From Escherichia coli (lineage in GTDB: Bacteria > Pseudomonadota > Gammaproteobacteria > Enterobacterales > Enterobacteriaceae), in the NCBI RefSeq assembly GCF_003334405.1, contig NZ_QOWM01000003.1: a stretch of DNA of 64,000 bases. One strand, given 5' to 3'. Under the pieces are notes generated by a model. The model did not search any database. It saw only the letters and a program-made list of their open reading frames with translations, and had not been told where the DNA came from. The number at the start of each line of letters is the position of its first letter. Positions within the stretch are counted from its first letter, which is position 1. Below, one piece after another: positions 11,234-63,448 of the stretch. A program made the translations under genes and the position numbers.

Positions 11234-12068
<835 letters not shown>

Positions 12069-15983: not shown

Positions 15984-16082
15984 CCTGATGCGCTATGCTT
16001 ATCAGGCCTACATAGTCCCTGCAATATATTGAATTAGCAAGGTTTTGTAGGCCGGATAAGGCGTTCACGCCGCATCCGGCAG
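15984..16082. repeat. REP elements (two copies) between torZ and cmoB
   Basis: gcctgatgcgctatgcttatcaggcctaca and gtaggccggataaggcgttcacgccgcatccggcag. Confidence 0.7.
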
Positions 16083-44412: not shown

Positions 44413-45069
44413 CTAGCGTAATGGAATGATATCGCCTTGCCAACCCTGTGATGAACGCTGACCGACTAACAATAATGAACCACGATCGGCGCGAACGATG
44501 AGACGACCATATTCATCCCATAGTGCACTGTTACCACGGGCATTTGCCATCAGCACGGCAATCGAGTACTGATGTGAAAAAAATTGTAAGCGACGGGCCG
44601 ACGCCAGCAGGTCGGGTTCTCCCAGACATTGCCCTGTAGTAAACAGTGAACAGGTCGGGTCCATATCCATACCTTGCGGTTGTTCATCGACCACCGTGAT
44701 GGTTCTGGAACGACGGCCCAGACATGCACCATGACTCTGATGGTAGATCCCAGGCGTTTTTCGCCACGGTGCGAACACCGCAATTCCACGAATAAAGCGA
44801 TCGTTATATTCAACGGGAAGGCCGGCAATGATGGTCATTCGCCAGGTCGTTGCGGCATAACAAAGCGGGTCTAACAGTGAGAGATCGGGTGGGGCAGGAA
44901 GGGCACGTCGCGAATAATCACACCCCAGTAAAGAAAGCGATGGAAAAACTAACAGCTGACATTGTTGCCTGGCGGCGGCCCTCACAAACTCCAGATGATG
45001 AGCTACCTGTTCGGTGAGTGAGGTTTTACGAGGCTCATATTGCGCTGCTGCAACTTTCCAGAACGACAT
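44413..45069 (-). CDS. yobB: Carbon-nitrogen hydrolase-family protein YobB (218 aa)
   Basis: 218-aa ORF MSFWKVAAAQYEPRKTSLTEQVAHHLEFVRAAARQQCQLLVFP. Confidence 0.85.
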   Translation of the reverse strand: MSFWKVAAAQYEPRKTSLTEQVAHHLEFVRAAARQQCQLLVFPSLSLLGCDYSRRALPAPPDLSLLDPLCYAATTWRMTIIAGLPVEYNDRFIRGIAVFAPWRKTPGIYHQSHGACLGRRSRTITVVDEQPQGMDMDPTCSLFTTGQCLGEPDLLASARRLQFFSHQYSIAVLMANARGNSALWDEYGRLIVRADRGSLLLVGQRSSQGWQGDIIPLR

Positions 45070-45170
45070 AATGACTTCCTTTTCAAAAGGACTGCAAATT
45101 ATGAGTGCGGTTTAGAAAATACTCATAATTTAGCAGGCGTTATGTAAGAAAGTGTAACTCTGTATAAGTT

Positions 45171-45401
45171 TTATTTAAGTTTGGGCTCGTAAGGTAAACG
45201 TGACAGATTGACCGAAGCCAAACGGTGGGCAATAAGCCGCTCGCGAAACCAGCTGCGCAAATGTTCAGGCTGTTCACGTTCAACCGCTTCAGCGATCACC
45301 GGCATATTGTAGCGTTCTTTAAATGCCACCCCGGCCGCCGCCAAATCGACATTCACTTTATCCATTTCTGTTTGATCCAGTTTAGCCAGATTCTTCAGCA
45401 T
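45171..45401 (-). CDS. holE: DNA polymerase III theta subunit HolE (76 aa)
   Basis: ORF 45171..45488; start placed at ATG 45401 ([35 protein letters not shown]). Confidence 0.9.
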
Positions 45402-45539
45402 TCTTAATCTCCTCATCATTCGCGGGCAAAAGTTACTAAGAGTGAGCCAGGATGGCAAGCCGGAATTGATGATCCTCGACTCAGACATTAGACAAGGTTA
45501 TGCTCTGTAAAAAAGTTATTACAAAAAGGAATAGATAAT

Positions 45540-45914
45540 ATGGCTTCAACTGCACGCTCCCTTCGCTACGCGCTGGCAATCCTGACCACTTCGTTGGTGA
45601 CACCTTCCGTCTGGGCACATGCGCATTTAACGCATCAGTATCCTGCGGCAAACGCGCAAGTGACAGCTGCACCGCAGGCAATCACTTTAAACTTCTCGGA
45701 AGGTGTTGAAACAGGATTCAGTGGTGCAAAAATCACGGGGCCAAAAAACGAAAATATTAAAACATTACCGGCGAAGCGAAATGAGCAGGACCAAAAGCAA
45801 CTGATTGTTCCACTGGCCGATTCGCTGAAACCCGGAACCTACACCGTTGACTGGCATGTTGTTTCGGTGGACGGGCATAAAACGAAAGGACACTACACCT
45901 TTAGCGTGAAATAA
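45540..45914 (+). CDS. yobA: CopC-family periplasmic copper-binding protein YobA (124 aa)
   Basis: 124-aa ORF with signal peptide MASTARSLRYALAILTTSLVTPSVWAHAHL and CopC-type motifs. Confidence 0.88.
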   Translation: MASTARSLRYALAILTTSLVTPSVWAHAHLTHQYPAANAQVTAAPQAITLNFSEGVETGFSGAKITGPKNENIKTLPAKRNEQDQKQLIVPLADSLKPGTYTVDWHVVSVDGHKTKGHYTFSVK

Positions 45915-45917
45915 ATC

Positions 45918-46790
45918 ATGCTGGCGTTTACCTGGATCGCGCTGCGATTTATCCATTTCACCTCGCTGATGCTGGTTTTTGGCTTCGCAATGTACGGTGC
46001 CTGGCTGGCCCCCTTGACGATTCGTCGCTTGCTGGCGAAGCGTTTTCTGCGTTTACAACAGCACGCTGCCGTCTGGAGTTTGATCAGTGCCACTGCAATG
46101 CTCGCCGTTCAGGGCGGGTTGATGGGAACGGGATGGACAGATGTATTTTCGCCAAACATTTGGCAGGCTGTTTTGCAAACGCAGTTTGGTGGCATCTGGT
46201 TATGGCAAATTGTTCTCGCCCTCGTAACGTTGATCGTCGCCCTTATGCAACCGCGGAATATGCCACGTTTGCTGTTTATGCTCACTACCGCGCAATTTAT
46301 TCTGCTGGCGGGAGTGGGGCATGCGACGCTGAATGAAGGGGTAACAGCGAAAATCCATCAGACTAATCACGCGATTCACCTGATTTGTGCGGCGGCGTGG
46401 TTTGGGGGATTACTGCCGGTGCTCTGGTGTATGCAACTCATCAAAGGCCGTTGGCGACACCAGGCTATTCAGGCGCTGATGCGTTTTTCCTGGTGCGGGC
46501 ATTTTGCGGTGATCGGCGTACTGGCAAGCGGCGTGCTTAATGCATTGTTGATTACCGGATTTCCCCCCACGCTTACGACTTACTGGGGCCAACTCTTATT
46601 GCTCAAAGCCATCCTGGTGATGATTATGGTGGTCATTGCGCTGGCTAATCGTTATGTTCTTGTACCGCGCATGAGGCAGGATGAAGATCGTGCGGCACCC
46701 TGGTTTGTGTGGATGACTAAACTCGAATGGGCGATAGGTGCGGTAGTGCTGGTGATCATCAGCCTGCTTGCGACTCTCGAACCTTTTTGA
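45918..46790 (+). CDS. yebZ: CopD-family inner membrane protein YebZ (290 aa)
   Basis: 290-aa polytopic membrane ORF immediately downstream of yobA. Confidence 0.88.
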   Translation: MLAFTWIALRFIHFTSLMLVFGFAMYGAWLAPLTIRRLLAKRFLRLQQHAAVWSLISATAMLAVQGGLMGTGWTDVFSPNIWQAVLQTQFGGIWLWQIVLALVTLIVALMQPRNMPRLLFMLTTAQFILLAGVGHATLNEGVTAKIHQTNHAIHLICAAAWFGGLLPVLWCMQLIKGRWRHQAIQALMRFSWCGHFAVIGVLASGVLNALLITGFPPTLTTYWGQLLLLKAILVMIMVVIALANRYVLVPRMRQDEDRAAPWFVWMTKLEWAIGAVVLVIISLLATLEPF

Positions 46791-46802
46791 TGGATTACGA
46801 AA

Positions 46803-47144
46803 ATGATGAAAAAAAGTATTCTGGCGTTTCTGTTACTCACCAGTTCTGCAGCGGCGCTGGCTGCACCGCAGGTGATTACCGTCAGTCGTTTTGAAGTGGG
46901 TAAAGACAAATGGGCGTTTAATCGCGAAGAGGTGATGCTGACTTGCCGACCGGGTAATGCTTTGTATGTTATTAATCCGAGTACCCTCGTGCAGTATCCT
47001 TTAAACGATATCGCACAAAAGGAAGTTGCCAGTGGGAAGACCAATGCCCAACCCATTTCGGTGATTCAGATTGATGATCCTAACAATCCCGGCGAAAAAA
47101 TGAGTCTGGCACCGTTTATAGAACGAGCTGAAAAACTCTGTTAA
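46803..47144 (+). CDS. yebY: DUF2511-family periplasmic protein YebY (113 aa)
   Basis: 113-aa ORF with signal peptide [20 protein letters not shown]. Confidence 0.85.
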
Positions 47145-47170
47145 TTACCTAAAATAGCCTTTTGATTTCC

Positions 47171-47215
47171 AATAAAAAAACCGCCTCAGTTCTTTCACCA
47201 GAACGGGCGGTTTTT
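47171..47215. terminator. Bidirectional terminator after yebY (also the likely 3' end of antisense RyeA)
   Basis: aaaaaaaccgcctcagttctttcaccagaacgggcggttttt: bulged hairpin flanked by an A-run and a T-run. Confidence 0.55.
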
Positions 47216-47440
47216 AACATTTCAGCTGATGACCACCACGCTTTTTATTGACCATTTTGCACGCAAACTGGAAAACCTGGCGTCGTCATCTATTCTTAAA
47301 GGGCAAGGCAACTAAGCCTGCATTAATGCCAACTTTTAGCGCACGGCTCTCTCCCAAGAGCCATTTCCCTGGACCGAATACAGGAATCGTGTTCGGTCTC
47401 TTTTTATCTGTTAAAAGCCAGAAGCATTTCCTTCGCTGAC
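47172..47440 (-). ncRNA. ryeA: Antisense sRNA RyeA (SraC) overlapping sdsR; boundaries uncertain
   Basis: Established knowledge that RyeA is transcribed opposite to and fully overlaps SdsR in this intergenic region; boundaries inferred from the bidirectional terminator at 47171..47215. Confidence 0.35.
47303..47405 (+). ncRNA. sdsR: sRNA SdsR (RyeB), RpoS-dependent Hfq-binding sRNA; ends approximate
   Basis: gcaaggcaactaagcctgcattaatgccaacttttagcgcacggctctctcccaagagccatttccctggaccgaatacaggaatcgtgttcggtctcttttt matches the SdsR sequence as I recall it, including the terminal hairpin plus U-run; yebY-pphA intergenic location. Confidence 0.6.
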
Positions 47441-47539
47441 TTTATAGTCAACCATAACACACACTCTACTGTCTGAGTCCAGCGTTTTTTAACATTCTTG
47501 TTAAGATTATGTGATCTTTAGCGCGGGAGGAAAATATTG

Positions 47540-48196
47540 ATGAAACAGCCTGCGCCCGTTTATCAGAGAATTGCGGGTCATCAATGGCGACATATCTGGC
47601 TTTCTGGCGATATACACGGTTGTCTTGAGCAGTTGCGCCGCAAATTATGGCATTGTCGTTTTGATCCGTGGCGAGATTTACTTATCTCAGTGGGAGACGT
47701 TATCGATCGTGGGCCGCAAAGTTTACGTTGTCTGCAGTTACTGGAACAACATTGGGTTTGTGCGGTAAGAGGCAATCATGAACAGATGGCGATGGATGCG
47801 CTGGCATCCCAGCAGATGTCTTTGTGGTTGATGAATGGCGGCGACTGGTTTATTGCGCTGGCAGATAATCAACAGAAACAAGCGAAAACGGCGCTGGAAA
47901 AATGTCAGCATTTGCCCTTTATTCTTGAAGTACACAGTCGCACCGGCAAGCATGTTATTGCTCATGCCGATTATCCAGATGATGTTTATGAATGGCAAAA
48001 GGACGTTGATTTGCATCAGGTCTTGTGGAGCCGCTCGCGATTAGGTGAACGCCAAAAAGGGCAGGGAATTACAGGTGCTGATCATTTCTGGTTTGGTCAT
48101 ACACCGTTGCGACATCGCGTGGATATTGGCAACCTGCATTATATTGATACCGGTGCTGTCTTTGGGGGCGAACTGACTCTTGTGCAATTGCAATAA
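47540..48196 (+). CDS. pphA: Serine/threonine protein phosphatase 1 PphA (PrpA) (218 aa)
   Basis: ORF 47537..48196 (TTG) with ATG at 47540; metallophosphatase motifs GDIHGC, GDVIDRG, GNHE. Confidence 0.9.
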   Translation: MKQPAPVYQRIAGHQWRHIWLSGDIHGCLEQLRRKLWHCRFDPWRDLLISVGDVIDRGPQSLRCLQLLEQHWVCAVRGNHEQMAMDALASQQMSLWLMNGGDWFIALADNQQKQAKTALEKCQHLPFILEVHSRTGKHVIAHADYPDDVYEWQKDVDLHQVLWSRSRLGERQKGQGITGADHFWFGHTPLRHRVDIGNLHYIDTGAVFGGELTLVQLQ

Positions 48197-48388
48197 TTAA
48201 AAATCACCGTACTCCTGTGCAGGTCGCCAGAAACCATCTATAAAATCCTCAATCGGAAAACAACCGCCCTGGCGGATCCGTTGATCGCTCATAGAATAAA
48301 GACACTGCTGTTCCGTGTTGTAGACATCCACAACAATATCTTCACAACCGCCATCCAGGTAGCAAACAAAAAGTACCAGCGCGAACAT
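48197..48388 (-). CDS. yebW: Small protein YebW (63 aa)
   Basis: ORF 48197..48472; start placed at internal ATG 48388 (MFALVLFVCYLDGGCEDIVVDVYNTEQQ) to give 63 aa. Confidence 0.65.
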   Translation of the reverse strand: MFALVLFVCYLDGGCEDIVVDVYNTEQQCLYSMSDQRIRQGGCFPIEDFIDGFWRPAQEYGDF

Positions 48389-48492
48389 TTCATCCCCGAA
48401 GTGTGGTGCCGTACCGTTAAGTTTAGGAGAGATTTTACAACGGGGGAATAACCAGGACAAATAACCCGCCATGCCGACGGGTTCTTTTTGGA

Positions 48493-48729
48493 TCAGGCAA
48501 GACGCATAATCCAGGCATCAGATTGTTGATCGTAACGGGTACGGTAAAGGACAGAGTGTTCGCCATTTAGCAGGGCAGGGATACTGGTTTCAGCATCCCA
48601 GGCATCCAGTTGCATACATAAATCGGGGTCAGATTTACAAGGAATGGTTAACGTTCGATCACCTGGCGATTCACCGTGTAATTCGCCGTCGTCGATTTCA
48701 AAAGCGCCTATGCGCACACTGGTTTTCAT
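48493..48729 (-). CDS. yebV: Small protein YebV (78 aa)
   Basis: ORF 48493..48744; start placed at ATG 48729 (MKTSVRIGAFEIDDGELHGESPGD). Confidence 0.8.
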   Translation of the reverse strand: MKTSVRIGAFEIDDGELHGESPGDRTLTIPCKSDPDLCMQLDAWDAETSIPALLNGEHSVLYRTRYDQQSDAWIMRLA

Positions 48730-48846
48730 CTTCGTGCTCTCCATTTAGCTGCCGATTGTGGTACGACCAGTCCGATCGCACCATTTTTCAGCCTAGTTGA
48801 GGCAGCCGAATGTGCCAGTCAAAAAGTGCGCTTTTTTTGTGCGCTG

Positions 48847-50292
48847 TCAGGCGTTACCGGTAAAAAGTTTCCCATCGCGCACCAGTTCACGCGGATAGCT
48901 GTTTTTCAATCGCGAACCAATCCGTTTGGCTAAACCAATCGGTTGATGCTGGAAAGTAACCAATACATCATCCGCCACTGGCGCGGCTTGCGGGTAAACA
49001 TCGCGCCCGCGATACCACTCCTCCGCTTCCTGCGGTGTCAGCTCGAATGCATTCATATTATCGGGTGAGGCAAGAGCAATAACCGCTTCATGCTGCCAGC
49101 GATAACCTTTGTTGTGCGTCTCGGCAAGTTTAATCCCCAACCGAGAAAATCGGACTTTACCGATCAGGGCTTCAATGCCCACCGGGAACAACCACAGTTC
49201 TTTGTCACGCTGCCAGAGGCGCAGGTTTTCATCCCAGTTTAAGCCAACACCTGTAGCCGCCTGACGAATTTGTCCAGCTTCGCGATCTTTCACCGGGCTG
49301 AACGGAAAATTACCGACTTTGTATTTGGGGGCGGGTAAGGCGGGAATCGCCTGAGTTTTACGCAGACGAGCAACGAAGAAGCCTTCGCAGTCGTAAATTT
49401 GTGGGAAAACATGCAAAAAGCCTTCTTCGGTCAGCGCTTTGTTTGCACCAGGGAAGAGATCGCCAAGTGGTAAAAACTCTACTGCGTCGGGGTAAGTCTC
49501 TTTCAGCCACAGGCAAACGGCTTCGTTTTCTTCCTGGTTTAAGGTACAGGTCGAGTAAACCAGCGTACCACCAGGACGTAATGCATGAAAGGCGCTGTCG
49601 ATAAGCTCCCGTTGTGTAGCTGCGATTTCCTGATTGCTTTCTGGTGACCAGTTTTTTAGCGCATCGGGATCTTTACGCACCACGCCTTCGCCAGAGCAGG
49701 GAGCGTCCAGCAAAATGGCATCGAACATTTCTGGCACTGCCGCACCAAACACGCGGCCATCAAAATGTGTGAGCGCAACATTACTGATACCACAGCGGCT
49801 GATATTGGCATGTAACACTTTTACCCGACTGGCGGAAAACTCATTGGCAAGGATTGCCCCTTCGTTATTCATCCGCGCGGAAATTTGCGTCGTTTTGGAG
49901 CCAGGCGCGGCAGCGACATCCATCACCCGCTGTGGTGCATTACCGTCAGCAAACAAGGCGGCAACAGGCAACATTGAACTGGCTTCCTGAATATAAAACA
50001 GGCCACTTAAATGCTCGGCGGTACTACCCAATGGCAATGCATCTTCATTGTCGCGTTCAATCCAGAAACCTTCTTCACACCACGGAATTGGCGTAAGCGT
50101 CCAGCCATAAGGAGCGGTTAATTGCAGGAAATCAGCAACGGAGATTTTCAGCGTATTAACGCGAATGCTGCGGCGCAACGGGCGCTGACAGGCGGCAAGA
50201 AAATCATCAAATGAGAGCGTCGAAGGCATCGCTTCGCGCATTTGTGTCAGAAAGGCGTCCGGGAAATAAACGGTGTGTTGGGCCACGAGCAT
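48847..50292 (-). CDS. rsmF: 16S rRNA m5C1407 methyltransferase RsmF (YebU) (about 479-481 aa; start uncertain)
   Basis: ORF with NOL1/NOP2/Sun-family SAM methyltransferase core ([27 protein letters not shown]). Confidence 0.9.
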
Positions 50293-62248: not shown

Positions 62249-62917
62249 TCCTTCCTCAATCTTGAGTAACCCCGTCGTTGAAGGGTTACTCAATTCATCC
62301 TGATTATACGCACTGTCATGGTGCAACTGCTTCAAATTAAAACTCTGGTCTGACTTCAAATAATTATCATATTATTTATTTGCGTAACGGGATATCAGAA
62401 AAAGATATTTACCCCATTAATTTATTAGGATGTTTACATCGGATTTGTGATTAAGCGTGGTATTATTTATTAGCGAAACGTTTCTCTCTTGATTTTTTTG
62501 CTCATTCATCAATTTTTCTTATTTTAAATTTACAATCCCTTTGGGGATTGACTTCTCTTTAGGGTAATTAATAGCCGTTAACTGACTGTTTTATGAGAAA
62601 AAGTGATATAACTTTTTATTCATTGCATAGCAAAAAATGTGATATTGCACGCACTATGTAATAACTTCTCCCACTGGCCTGGAACAACTGAACTTATTGA
62701 ACTATGTTAGAAAATACGCCAGTTTAAGTATCTGCCTGAACTGGCAAGGTTAAGCACAATGATATATCGGCGCGTATTCCGTTGCATAAGTGTGCAAAAA
62801 AAGTGGAAGACGTATCGAGATTTGTGCGTCTGATCGAGACATGTTTAAAAATGGCTTGCCATAATTAACGTTGTATGTGATAACAGATTTCGGGTTAAAC
62901 GAGGTACAGTTCTGTTT

Positions 62918-63061
62918 ATGTGTGGCATTTTCAGTAAAGAAGTCCTGAGTAAACACGTTGACGTTGAATACCGCTTCTCTGCCGAGCCTTATATTGGTGC
63001 CTCATGCAGTAATGTGTCAGTTTTATCTATGTTATGCCTGCGGGCGAAGAAAACAATCTAA
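62918..63061 (+). CDS. yobF: Small protein YobF (47 aa), co-transcribed with cspC; not in the ORF track
   Basis: Manual translation from ATG 62918: [47 protein letters not shown] then TAA, 12 nt upstream of cspC. Confidence 0.85.
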
Positions 63062-63073
63062 GGAATTTTTCAA

Positions 63074-63283
63074 ATGGCAAAGATTAAAGGTCAGGTTAAG
63101 TGGTTCAACGAGTCTAAAGGTTTTGGCTTCATTACTCCGGCTGATGGCAGCAAAGATGTGTTCGTACACTTCTCCGCTATCCAGGGTAATGGCTTCAAAA
63201 CTCTGGCTGAAGGTCAGAACGTTGAGTTCGAAATTCAGGACGGCCAGAAAGGTCCGGCAGCTGTTAACGTAACAGCTATCTGA
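63074..63283 (+). CDS. cspC: Cold-shock-domain protein CspC (69 aa)
   Basis: 69-aa [72 protein letters not shown]. Confidence 0.97.
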
Positions 63284-63328
63284 TCGAATCCACTGATCTG
63301 AAGTGTGAATACGCTTCAATCTCGCTAT

Positions 63329-63355
63329 AAAGCCTCGTCGAATGCGAGGCTTTTT
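63329..63355 (+). terminator. Intrinsic terminator after cspC
   Basis: aaagcctcg-tcgaatg-cgaggc followed by ttttt. Confidence 0.75.
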
Positions 63356-63448
63356 ACTATGCTTTATCTTCGCTCCTGGCGTTCGGATATTTGCCCGCCG
63401 CGTGATTCGCGTTACACTTGCGGCCTTTAGTATCCTGCCGGAGTTGTC

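Follow-up and report, generated by a model that had tools for sequence, protein, structure and literature searches.

The intergenic stretch between yebY and pphA of Escherichia coli raises the question of whether it encodes a small protein, as a mechanical listing of reading frames would have it, or non-coding RNA. It was examined within a window of 64,000 nucleotides (contig NZ_QOWM01000003.1 of assembly GCF_003334405.1), to which all positions below refer. PGAP-annotated RefSeq records carry only yebY and pphA at this place and lack sdsR and ryeA; the curated NC_000913.3 record has both. A first-pass annotation had proposed that the two genes are separated by an overlapping sense/antisense pair of small RNAs, SdsR and RyeA, and had named a covariance-model search as the check. 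Our analysis leaves little doubt that two convergent non-coding RNAs are encoded by one and the same DNA, that they are the E. coli sdsR/ryeA (ryeB/sraC) pair, and that, as the literature describes, they remove each other in a switch. The locus is already known in detail, and the window adds nothing new to it. Its elements are as follows.

46803..47144, plus strand: yebY, from the annotation; the conserved upstream neighbor.
47172..47443, minus strand: RyeA (SraC), an antisense sRNA of ~270 nt; Rfam RF00101, curated ryeA, fold, and ends taken from PMC6610125.
47443..47172, minus strand: ryeA (b4432), 272 nt, as in the curated NC_000913.3 record.
47174..47215, both strands: bidirectional Rho-independent terminator with its hairpin at 47176..47215, common to yebY (plus) and RyeA (minus).
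47248..47439, plus strand: spurious 63-codon ORF with a TTG start, from the mechanical listing; it runs across the SdsR gene.
47269..47296, plus strand: sdsR promoter of the sigma-S type, -10 box TATTCT at 47291..47296; sequence and mutagenic primer.
47302..47405, plus strand: sdsR (b4433), 104 nt, as in the curated NC_000913.3 record.
47303..47405, plus strand: SdsR (RyeB) sRNA; Rfam RF00111, curated sdsR, fold, covariation, and RACE and primer extension (PMC6610125).
47371..47405, plus strand: Rho-independent terminator of SdsR, an 11-bp stem with a 7-nt loop (47371..47399) followed by CUUUUU; terminator scan and fold.
47451..47459, minus strand: sigma-70 promoter of ryeA, -10 box TATGGT at 47456..47451 preceded by TGT; extended-minus-10-like.
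47540..48196, plus strand: pphA (phosphoprotein phosphatase 1), from the annotation; the downstream neighbor.

The identity of the locus is established by direct comparison. With respect to MG1655, the window lies in reverse complement at ~1.92 Mb, such that a window coordinate equals 1970509 minus the NC_000913.3 coordinate. Over 47100..47600, the sequence agrees at 100% with that of E. coli K-12 MG1655 and of many further strains, and each of the 5,426 complete E. coli genomes has a match to it. The proposed position of the pair between yebY and pphA agrees with the annotation of both genes, and its reading as SdsR opposite RyeA agrees with the MG1655 identity, with the curated b4433 and b4432, and with Rfam matches on both strands. 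Compared with the reference entries, the window has the same sequence as MG1655 sdsR (b4433)/RF00111, the same place downstream of yebY, the same C(-13) promoter, three-hairpin fold and terminator, with no difference; likewise, it has the same sequence as MG1655 ryeA (b4432)/RF00101, with the sigma-70 -10 box and the terminator shared with yebY. As a separate observation, 237 of the 5,426 genomes cover less than 80% of the 501-nt query 47100..47600, while the part at 47400..47545 is found in all of them. Some strains may thus have an insertion or rearrangement on the yebY/terminator side.

The covariance-model search was run over 45000..50000 with all Rfam families, and a scan of the whole window at the gathering thresholds gave both matches again. 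SdsR_RyeB (RF00111) was matched at 47306..47405 on the plus strand with 114.4 bits against a gathering threshold of 38 (E = 1.4e-22), covering model positions 1-100 of 100. SraC_RyeA (RF00101) was matched at 47409..47265 on the minus strand with 175.1 bits against a threshold of 37 (E = 2.3e-41), covering model positions 1-145 of 145. Both families were thus found at the expected places and on the expected strands, far above threshold. The RyeA model is restricted to a central stretch of 145 nt (47409..47265) and includes neither the 5' leader of the RNA nor its last 93 nt at the 3' end. A match to the Listeria rliE family at 47122..47227 was rejected (25.7 bits against a gathering threshold of 90, E = 0.42); it arises because the yebY/RyeA terminator hairpin resembles the terminator in the rliE model. 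Elsewhere in the window, the MicL sRNA gave a full-length match at 11761..12068 on the plus strand (381.9 bits), and ES036 (CssrF) was matched at 16004..16046 on the minus strand (45.5 bits, barely over its threshold of 37.6). The cspA-thermoregulator family was matched at 62898..63358 on the plus strand (135.5 bits), a segment that we take, from its position in MG1655, to be probably the yobF-cspC transcript region.

The ends of SdsR are well defined. Its start has been mapped in MG1655 at 47303, one nucleotide past the position 47302 of the older annotation, and its 3' ends at +100 to +102, which correspond to 47402..47404 (PMC6610125). The first-pass annotation had placed SdsR at 47303..47405 with a hairpin and a U-run at its end; both are seen in the sequence, and the mapped start falls on the same coordinate. 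The RNA folds into three hairpins, a small one at the 5' end, a central one (GGCUCU/AGAGCC) and the 11-bp terminator, with a free energy of -35.2 kcal/mol (z = -3.8). This terminator has been described as leaky, and read-through yields an sdsR-pphA transcript (PMC6610125).

The sdsR promoter can be placed at its -10 box, as TATTCT is the hexamer swapped for an XhoI site in primer PM_SdsRR (PMC6610125). Selectivity for sigma-S has been associated with C at -13, T or G at -14, C at -8 and an A/T-rich discriminator (Fröhlich et al. 2012, PMC3333887). Counted from +1 at 47303, the promoter has C(-13) at 47290, T(-14), C(-8) and a TAA discriminator, with TCTATTCTTAA at 47289..47299. Judged by these letters, it appears to be a sigma-S-selective promoter in every one of the listed features. 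A putative -35 box, TGGAAA at 47269..47274, would leave a spacer of 16 bp, a placement that we infer. A scan with the sigma-70 consensus missed both promoters, that of sdsR and that of ryeA; its sole match (47128..47155) is located where yebY ends and was dismissed, being no more than is expected by chance.

On the opposite strand, RyeA consists of a 5' leader (47443..47406), the complement of SdsR (47405..47302) and a 3' extension (47301..47172) that crosses the sdsR promoter and reaches the terminator. Three adjacent starts have been mapped at 47445-47443 (PMC6610125). Every element first proposed for the locus was accurate to within a few bases, and the range 47172-47440 needs a small correction at its right boundary, since the 5' end of RyeA lies 3-5 nt past 47440. 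The -10 box of ryeA, which on the plus strand reads ACCATA at 47451..47456, is the hexamer swapped for XhoI in primer PM_RyeAF (PMC6610125). RyeA folds with a free energy of -93 kcal/mol (z = -4.3), and it contains no ORF of 30 codons or more. The claim that it overlaps SdsR on the opposite strand is borne out by the 175.1-bit minus-strand SraC_RyeA match and by the strand of the curated ryeA. In vitro transcription gave an RNA of ~100 nt with the sigma-S holoenzyme and one of ~270 nt with the sigma-70 holoenzyme, both with Rho-independent ends (PMC6610125). Furthermore, a single transcript or none had been named as the outcome that would speak against the pair; both RNAs have been observed on Northern blots and by RACE (PMC6610125, PMC3333887), and a double-stranded RNA cluster cut by RNase III has been recorded here (PMC7373196).

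Taken with the published work, this arrangement is consistent with a growth-phase switch. SdsR, ~103 nt long, would be transcribed in stationary phase from its sigma-S-selective promoter and would end at its own leaky terminator. RyeA, ~270 nt long, would be made during growth from a sigma-70 promoter and would run antisense through all of sdsR and its promoter to the terminator shared with yebY. Being perfectly complementary over ~103 bp, the two RNAs would pair, be cut by RNase III and so remove each other, with RyeA dominant in exponential phase and SdsR dominant in stationary phase. When overproduced, SdsR would be toxic through repression of yhcB, and RyeA would counteract this effect. 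Choi and coworkers reportedly observed, in 2018, an inhibition of growth by SdsR that was relieved by RyeA.

Several steps of this scheme have been documented. SdsR is abundant, sigma-S-dependent and Hfq-associated, and it represses the ompD, tolC, mutS and yhcB mRNAs in trans (PMC6610125, PMC3333887). The sigma dependence of each promoter and the mutual degradation of SdsR and RyeA were described by Choi et al. 2019 (PMC6610125), and the same work found that SdsR appears earlier in a ryeA -10 mutant and that ryeA transcription interferes with the sdsR promoter. It also showed that pphA is made mainly by read-through of the SdsR terminator from the sdsR promoter (PMC6610125); because pphA depends on this read-through, ryeA transcription lowers pphA as well. 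Moreover, among the double-stranded RNA clusters cut by RNase III in stationary phase, this locus ranks first (PMC7373196).

The pair has been listed among the type VIII RNA-RNA toxin-antitoxin systems, as one of two validated examples (PMC10767807). Like CreT/CreA, SdsR/RyeA joins an RNA toxin to an RNA antitoxin, encoded on opposite, overlapping strands. Overlap on opposite strands defines the type in that catalogue (PMC10767807), and in the window it amounts to ~103 bp of perfect complementarity. Classical toxin-antitoxin loci are different, in that sdsR/ryeA is a conserved chromosomal core sRNA locus without a mobile element and the reported toxicity was seen on overexpression. The extended perfect duplex between convergent transcripts is also a feature of cis-antisense pairs cut by RNase III, such as the type I pair ldrD/rdlD and GadY/gadX (cleavage: PMC7373196). 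Unlike those pairs, both partners of sdsR/ryeA are non-coding sRNAs, and according to the literature one also has an Hfq-dependent activity in trans.

To what extent each RNA is conserved was examined by scanning one genome per species for a pattern, the central hairpin GGCTCT/AGAGCC. The scan yielded at least 120 loci in Enterobacterales, Shewanella and Paraglaciecola. In an alignment of 40 SdsR sequences, 97.7% of the cells were paired in the consensus structure, compared with 20-48% when the partners were slid. Across these 40 orthologues, seven pairs changed on both sides, a covariation score that none of 500 shuffles reached. The compensatory changes sit in the terminator helix, where 5 of the 11 pairs are affected, and in the 5' hairpin (helices 3 and 1). 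The invariance of the central hairpin follows from its role as the search pattern and therefore provides no covariation evidence. The sdsR promoter block is likewise kept across genera of Enterobacterales. Among the matches listed, 107 of 120 loci have a yebY homologue immediately upstream in the same orientation, and pphA is the downstream neighbor at only 5 of 120.

SdsR-like genes were also observed outside Enterobacterales, in Shewanella (loci L025, L044, L056, L059 and L110) and Paraglaciecola (L100). The 3' module is conserved in them and their terminator shows compensatory changes, whereas the 5' part is unrelated and a yebY neighbor is lacking. The Rfam SdsR_RyeB model scores them at 62-88 bits, over its threshold, and we accordingly rejected the idea of presenting them as an extension of the family, which the existing model already reaches. 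The RyeA model also matches these genes (47-53 bits), and here it probably mirrors the SdsR sequence on the other strand.

The RyeA side of the locus presents another picture. In our comparison, the ryeA promoter side differs strongly from genus to genus and shifts in position, in agreement with an earlier study, which reported that SraC of Salmonella and Shigella is ~35 nt longer with a promoter further upstream (PMC3333887). The search for an upstream terminator used a pattern of A-tract, arm, gap, reverse-complement arm and T-tract; among the matches listed, 68 of 113 loci have such a terminator at an equal distance from sdsR on its upstream side, and these are essentially the loci of Enterobacteriaceae proper. 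Within E. coli, by comparison, every one of the 5,426 complete genomes carries the K-12-type ryeA promoter and leader with an identity of at least 95%, and a search of these genomes for a promoter difference between strains found none at that level.

A further arrangement was noted past the SdsR terminator, on the SraC/RyeA promoter and leader side, in most other Enterobacterales. First come two to three tandem CCGAAAT(T)-like repeats; an incomplete repetition of the SdsR terminator's 3' half (GTATTCGGTCTTTT) comes next, and beyond it stands a -10-like box on the minus strand. It lies 40-110 nt past the SdsR terminator at loci L005, L091, L063, L055, L040, L079, L082, L097, L017 and L045; E. 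coli (window 47406..47460) and Leclercia (L083) are without it. This arrangement may account for the greater length of SraC reported for Salmonella (PMC3333887).

These data bear on the alternative that fares best, namely that SdsR is the sole functional product of the locus and RyeA a by-product of a lineage-specific antisense promoter, acting mainly by interference with the sdsR promoter. The shifting ryeA promoter side is what such a by-product would be expected to show, and the RyeA matches in Shewanella and Paraglaciecola, as mirrors of SdsR, add nothing to the conservation of RyeA itself. Experiments point the same way in two respects: deletion of the sraC promoter raised SdsR only ~1.5-fold, and SraC was considered little conserved and dispensable for the control of SdsR (PMC3333887); in addition, read-through into pphA is lowered by ryeA transcription and not by RyeA supplied in trans (PMC6610125). 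However, the fixed promoter and leader in E. coli and the terminator kept in place at more than half of the listed loci argue against a dispensable transcript, as do the mutual degradation of the RNAs, the earlier appearance of SdsR in the ryeA -10 mutant (PMC6610125) and the rank of the locus among RNase III-cut duplexes (PMC7373196). We consider this alternative unlikely, although not negligibly so. How much the antitoxin role weighs physiologically is nonetheless debatable, given the ~1.5-fold effect (PMC3333887), the variable ryeA promoter side and the restriction of the terminator to Enterobacteriaceae proper. The reading that we prefer remains that of two RNAs that remove each other.

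The point at which RyeA ends was likewise open to another interpretation. The first-pass annotation had RyeA ending, with some reserve, at a bidirectional terminator at 47171..47215. The sequence contains a perfect 10-nt inverted repeat (47176-85 and 47206-15) flanked by an A-run and a T-run, and it folds stably on both strands (-19.8 and -20.6 kcal/mol, z = -4.9 and -4.5 against shuffles). On the plus strand, the hairpin stands 32 nt after the yebY stop codon and is followed by five U. On the minus strand, it is followed by seven U (47180..47174), and the longest RyeA RACE end is the last of these. Mapped 3' ends at +261 to +270, about 47183..47174, lie at the base of the stem and in the U-run (PMC6610125); together with the stable folds on both strands, this places the end of RyeA at the shared terminator, as first suggested, with the hairpin proper at 47176..47215.

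The alternative would assign the hairpin to yebY only and let RyeA end elsewhere, for instance near the start of SdsR. It could draw on the length of 249 nt quoted for RyeA in older literature and in PMC7373196, and on the Rfam model, which stops at 47265. Nevertheless, the curated ryeA is now 272 nt long and ends at window position 47172, and the RACE ends agree with the in vitro product of ~270 nt and its Rho-independent end (PMC6610125). The run of seven U also makes the hairpin a better terminator on the minus strand than on the plus strand, and between 47216 and 47302 neither the terminator scan nor the inverted-repeat search found a terminator-like structure. An end of RyeA other than at the shared terminator is thus highly improbable.

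With RyeA ending at the shared terminator as the rule, its occasional extension can be considered. The double-stranded RNA cluster captured with p19 at ryeA-ryeB measures 432 bp, which is longer than RyeA (PMC7373196 Table 1). Some RyeA transcripts might read past the terminator and become antisense to the 3' part of yebY, forming RNase III-sensitive duplexes, a speculation to which we give low credence. By our assumption about the offset of the older MG1655 numbering, the cluster would lie at about 46978..47409, well into yebY; the idea of read-through derives from this placement, since the cluster would reach past the 3' end of RyeA if that offset is right. The gene concerned, yebY, is the last of the yobA-yebZ-yebY operon.

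The remaining question is that of the 63-codon ORF, which is open throughout 47248..47439 in the window and which had been called spurious from the start. Its best case is the internal ATG at 47326, which lies inside SdsR and would give a form of 37 codons; the sdsR-pphA read-through transcript (PMC6610125) would hold the whole frame from that ATG, and the conservation of the region would then reflect coding constraint. Yet the frame has no annotation in the curated MG1655 or PGAP records and no NCBIfam match, and its exact protein sequence does not occur among ~15 billion predicted proteins, though the DNA is present in thousands of genomes. Among the matches listed, the frame stays open for a median of 45 codons in orthologues and reaches 60 codons or more at only 14 of 113 loci, so that it is broken in most of them. 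No Shine-Dalgarno sequence is visible upstream of TTG 47248 or ATG 47326, and the TTG precedes the SdsR transcription start. The substitutions form compensatory pairs in stems rather than falling on third codon positions, and with an invariant single-stranded core their pattern reads as that of an RNA and not of coding sequence. That the ORF or its shorter form is a real small protein is therefore barely credible, and the designation as spurious holds.

For annotation, the case has practical value, as automatic pipelines omit both sRNAs and a naive ORF track displays a 63-codon ORF in their place. Recognizing the sdsR/ryeA locus averts a false protein call and accounts for the expression of pphA through the reported read-through from the sdsR promoter. 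As a textbook case of small RNAs that are antisense to each other, sdsR/ryeA ties the sigma-S stress response to the control of porins, efflux (tolC), mismatch repair (mutS) and the cell envelope (yhcB).
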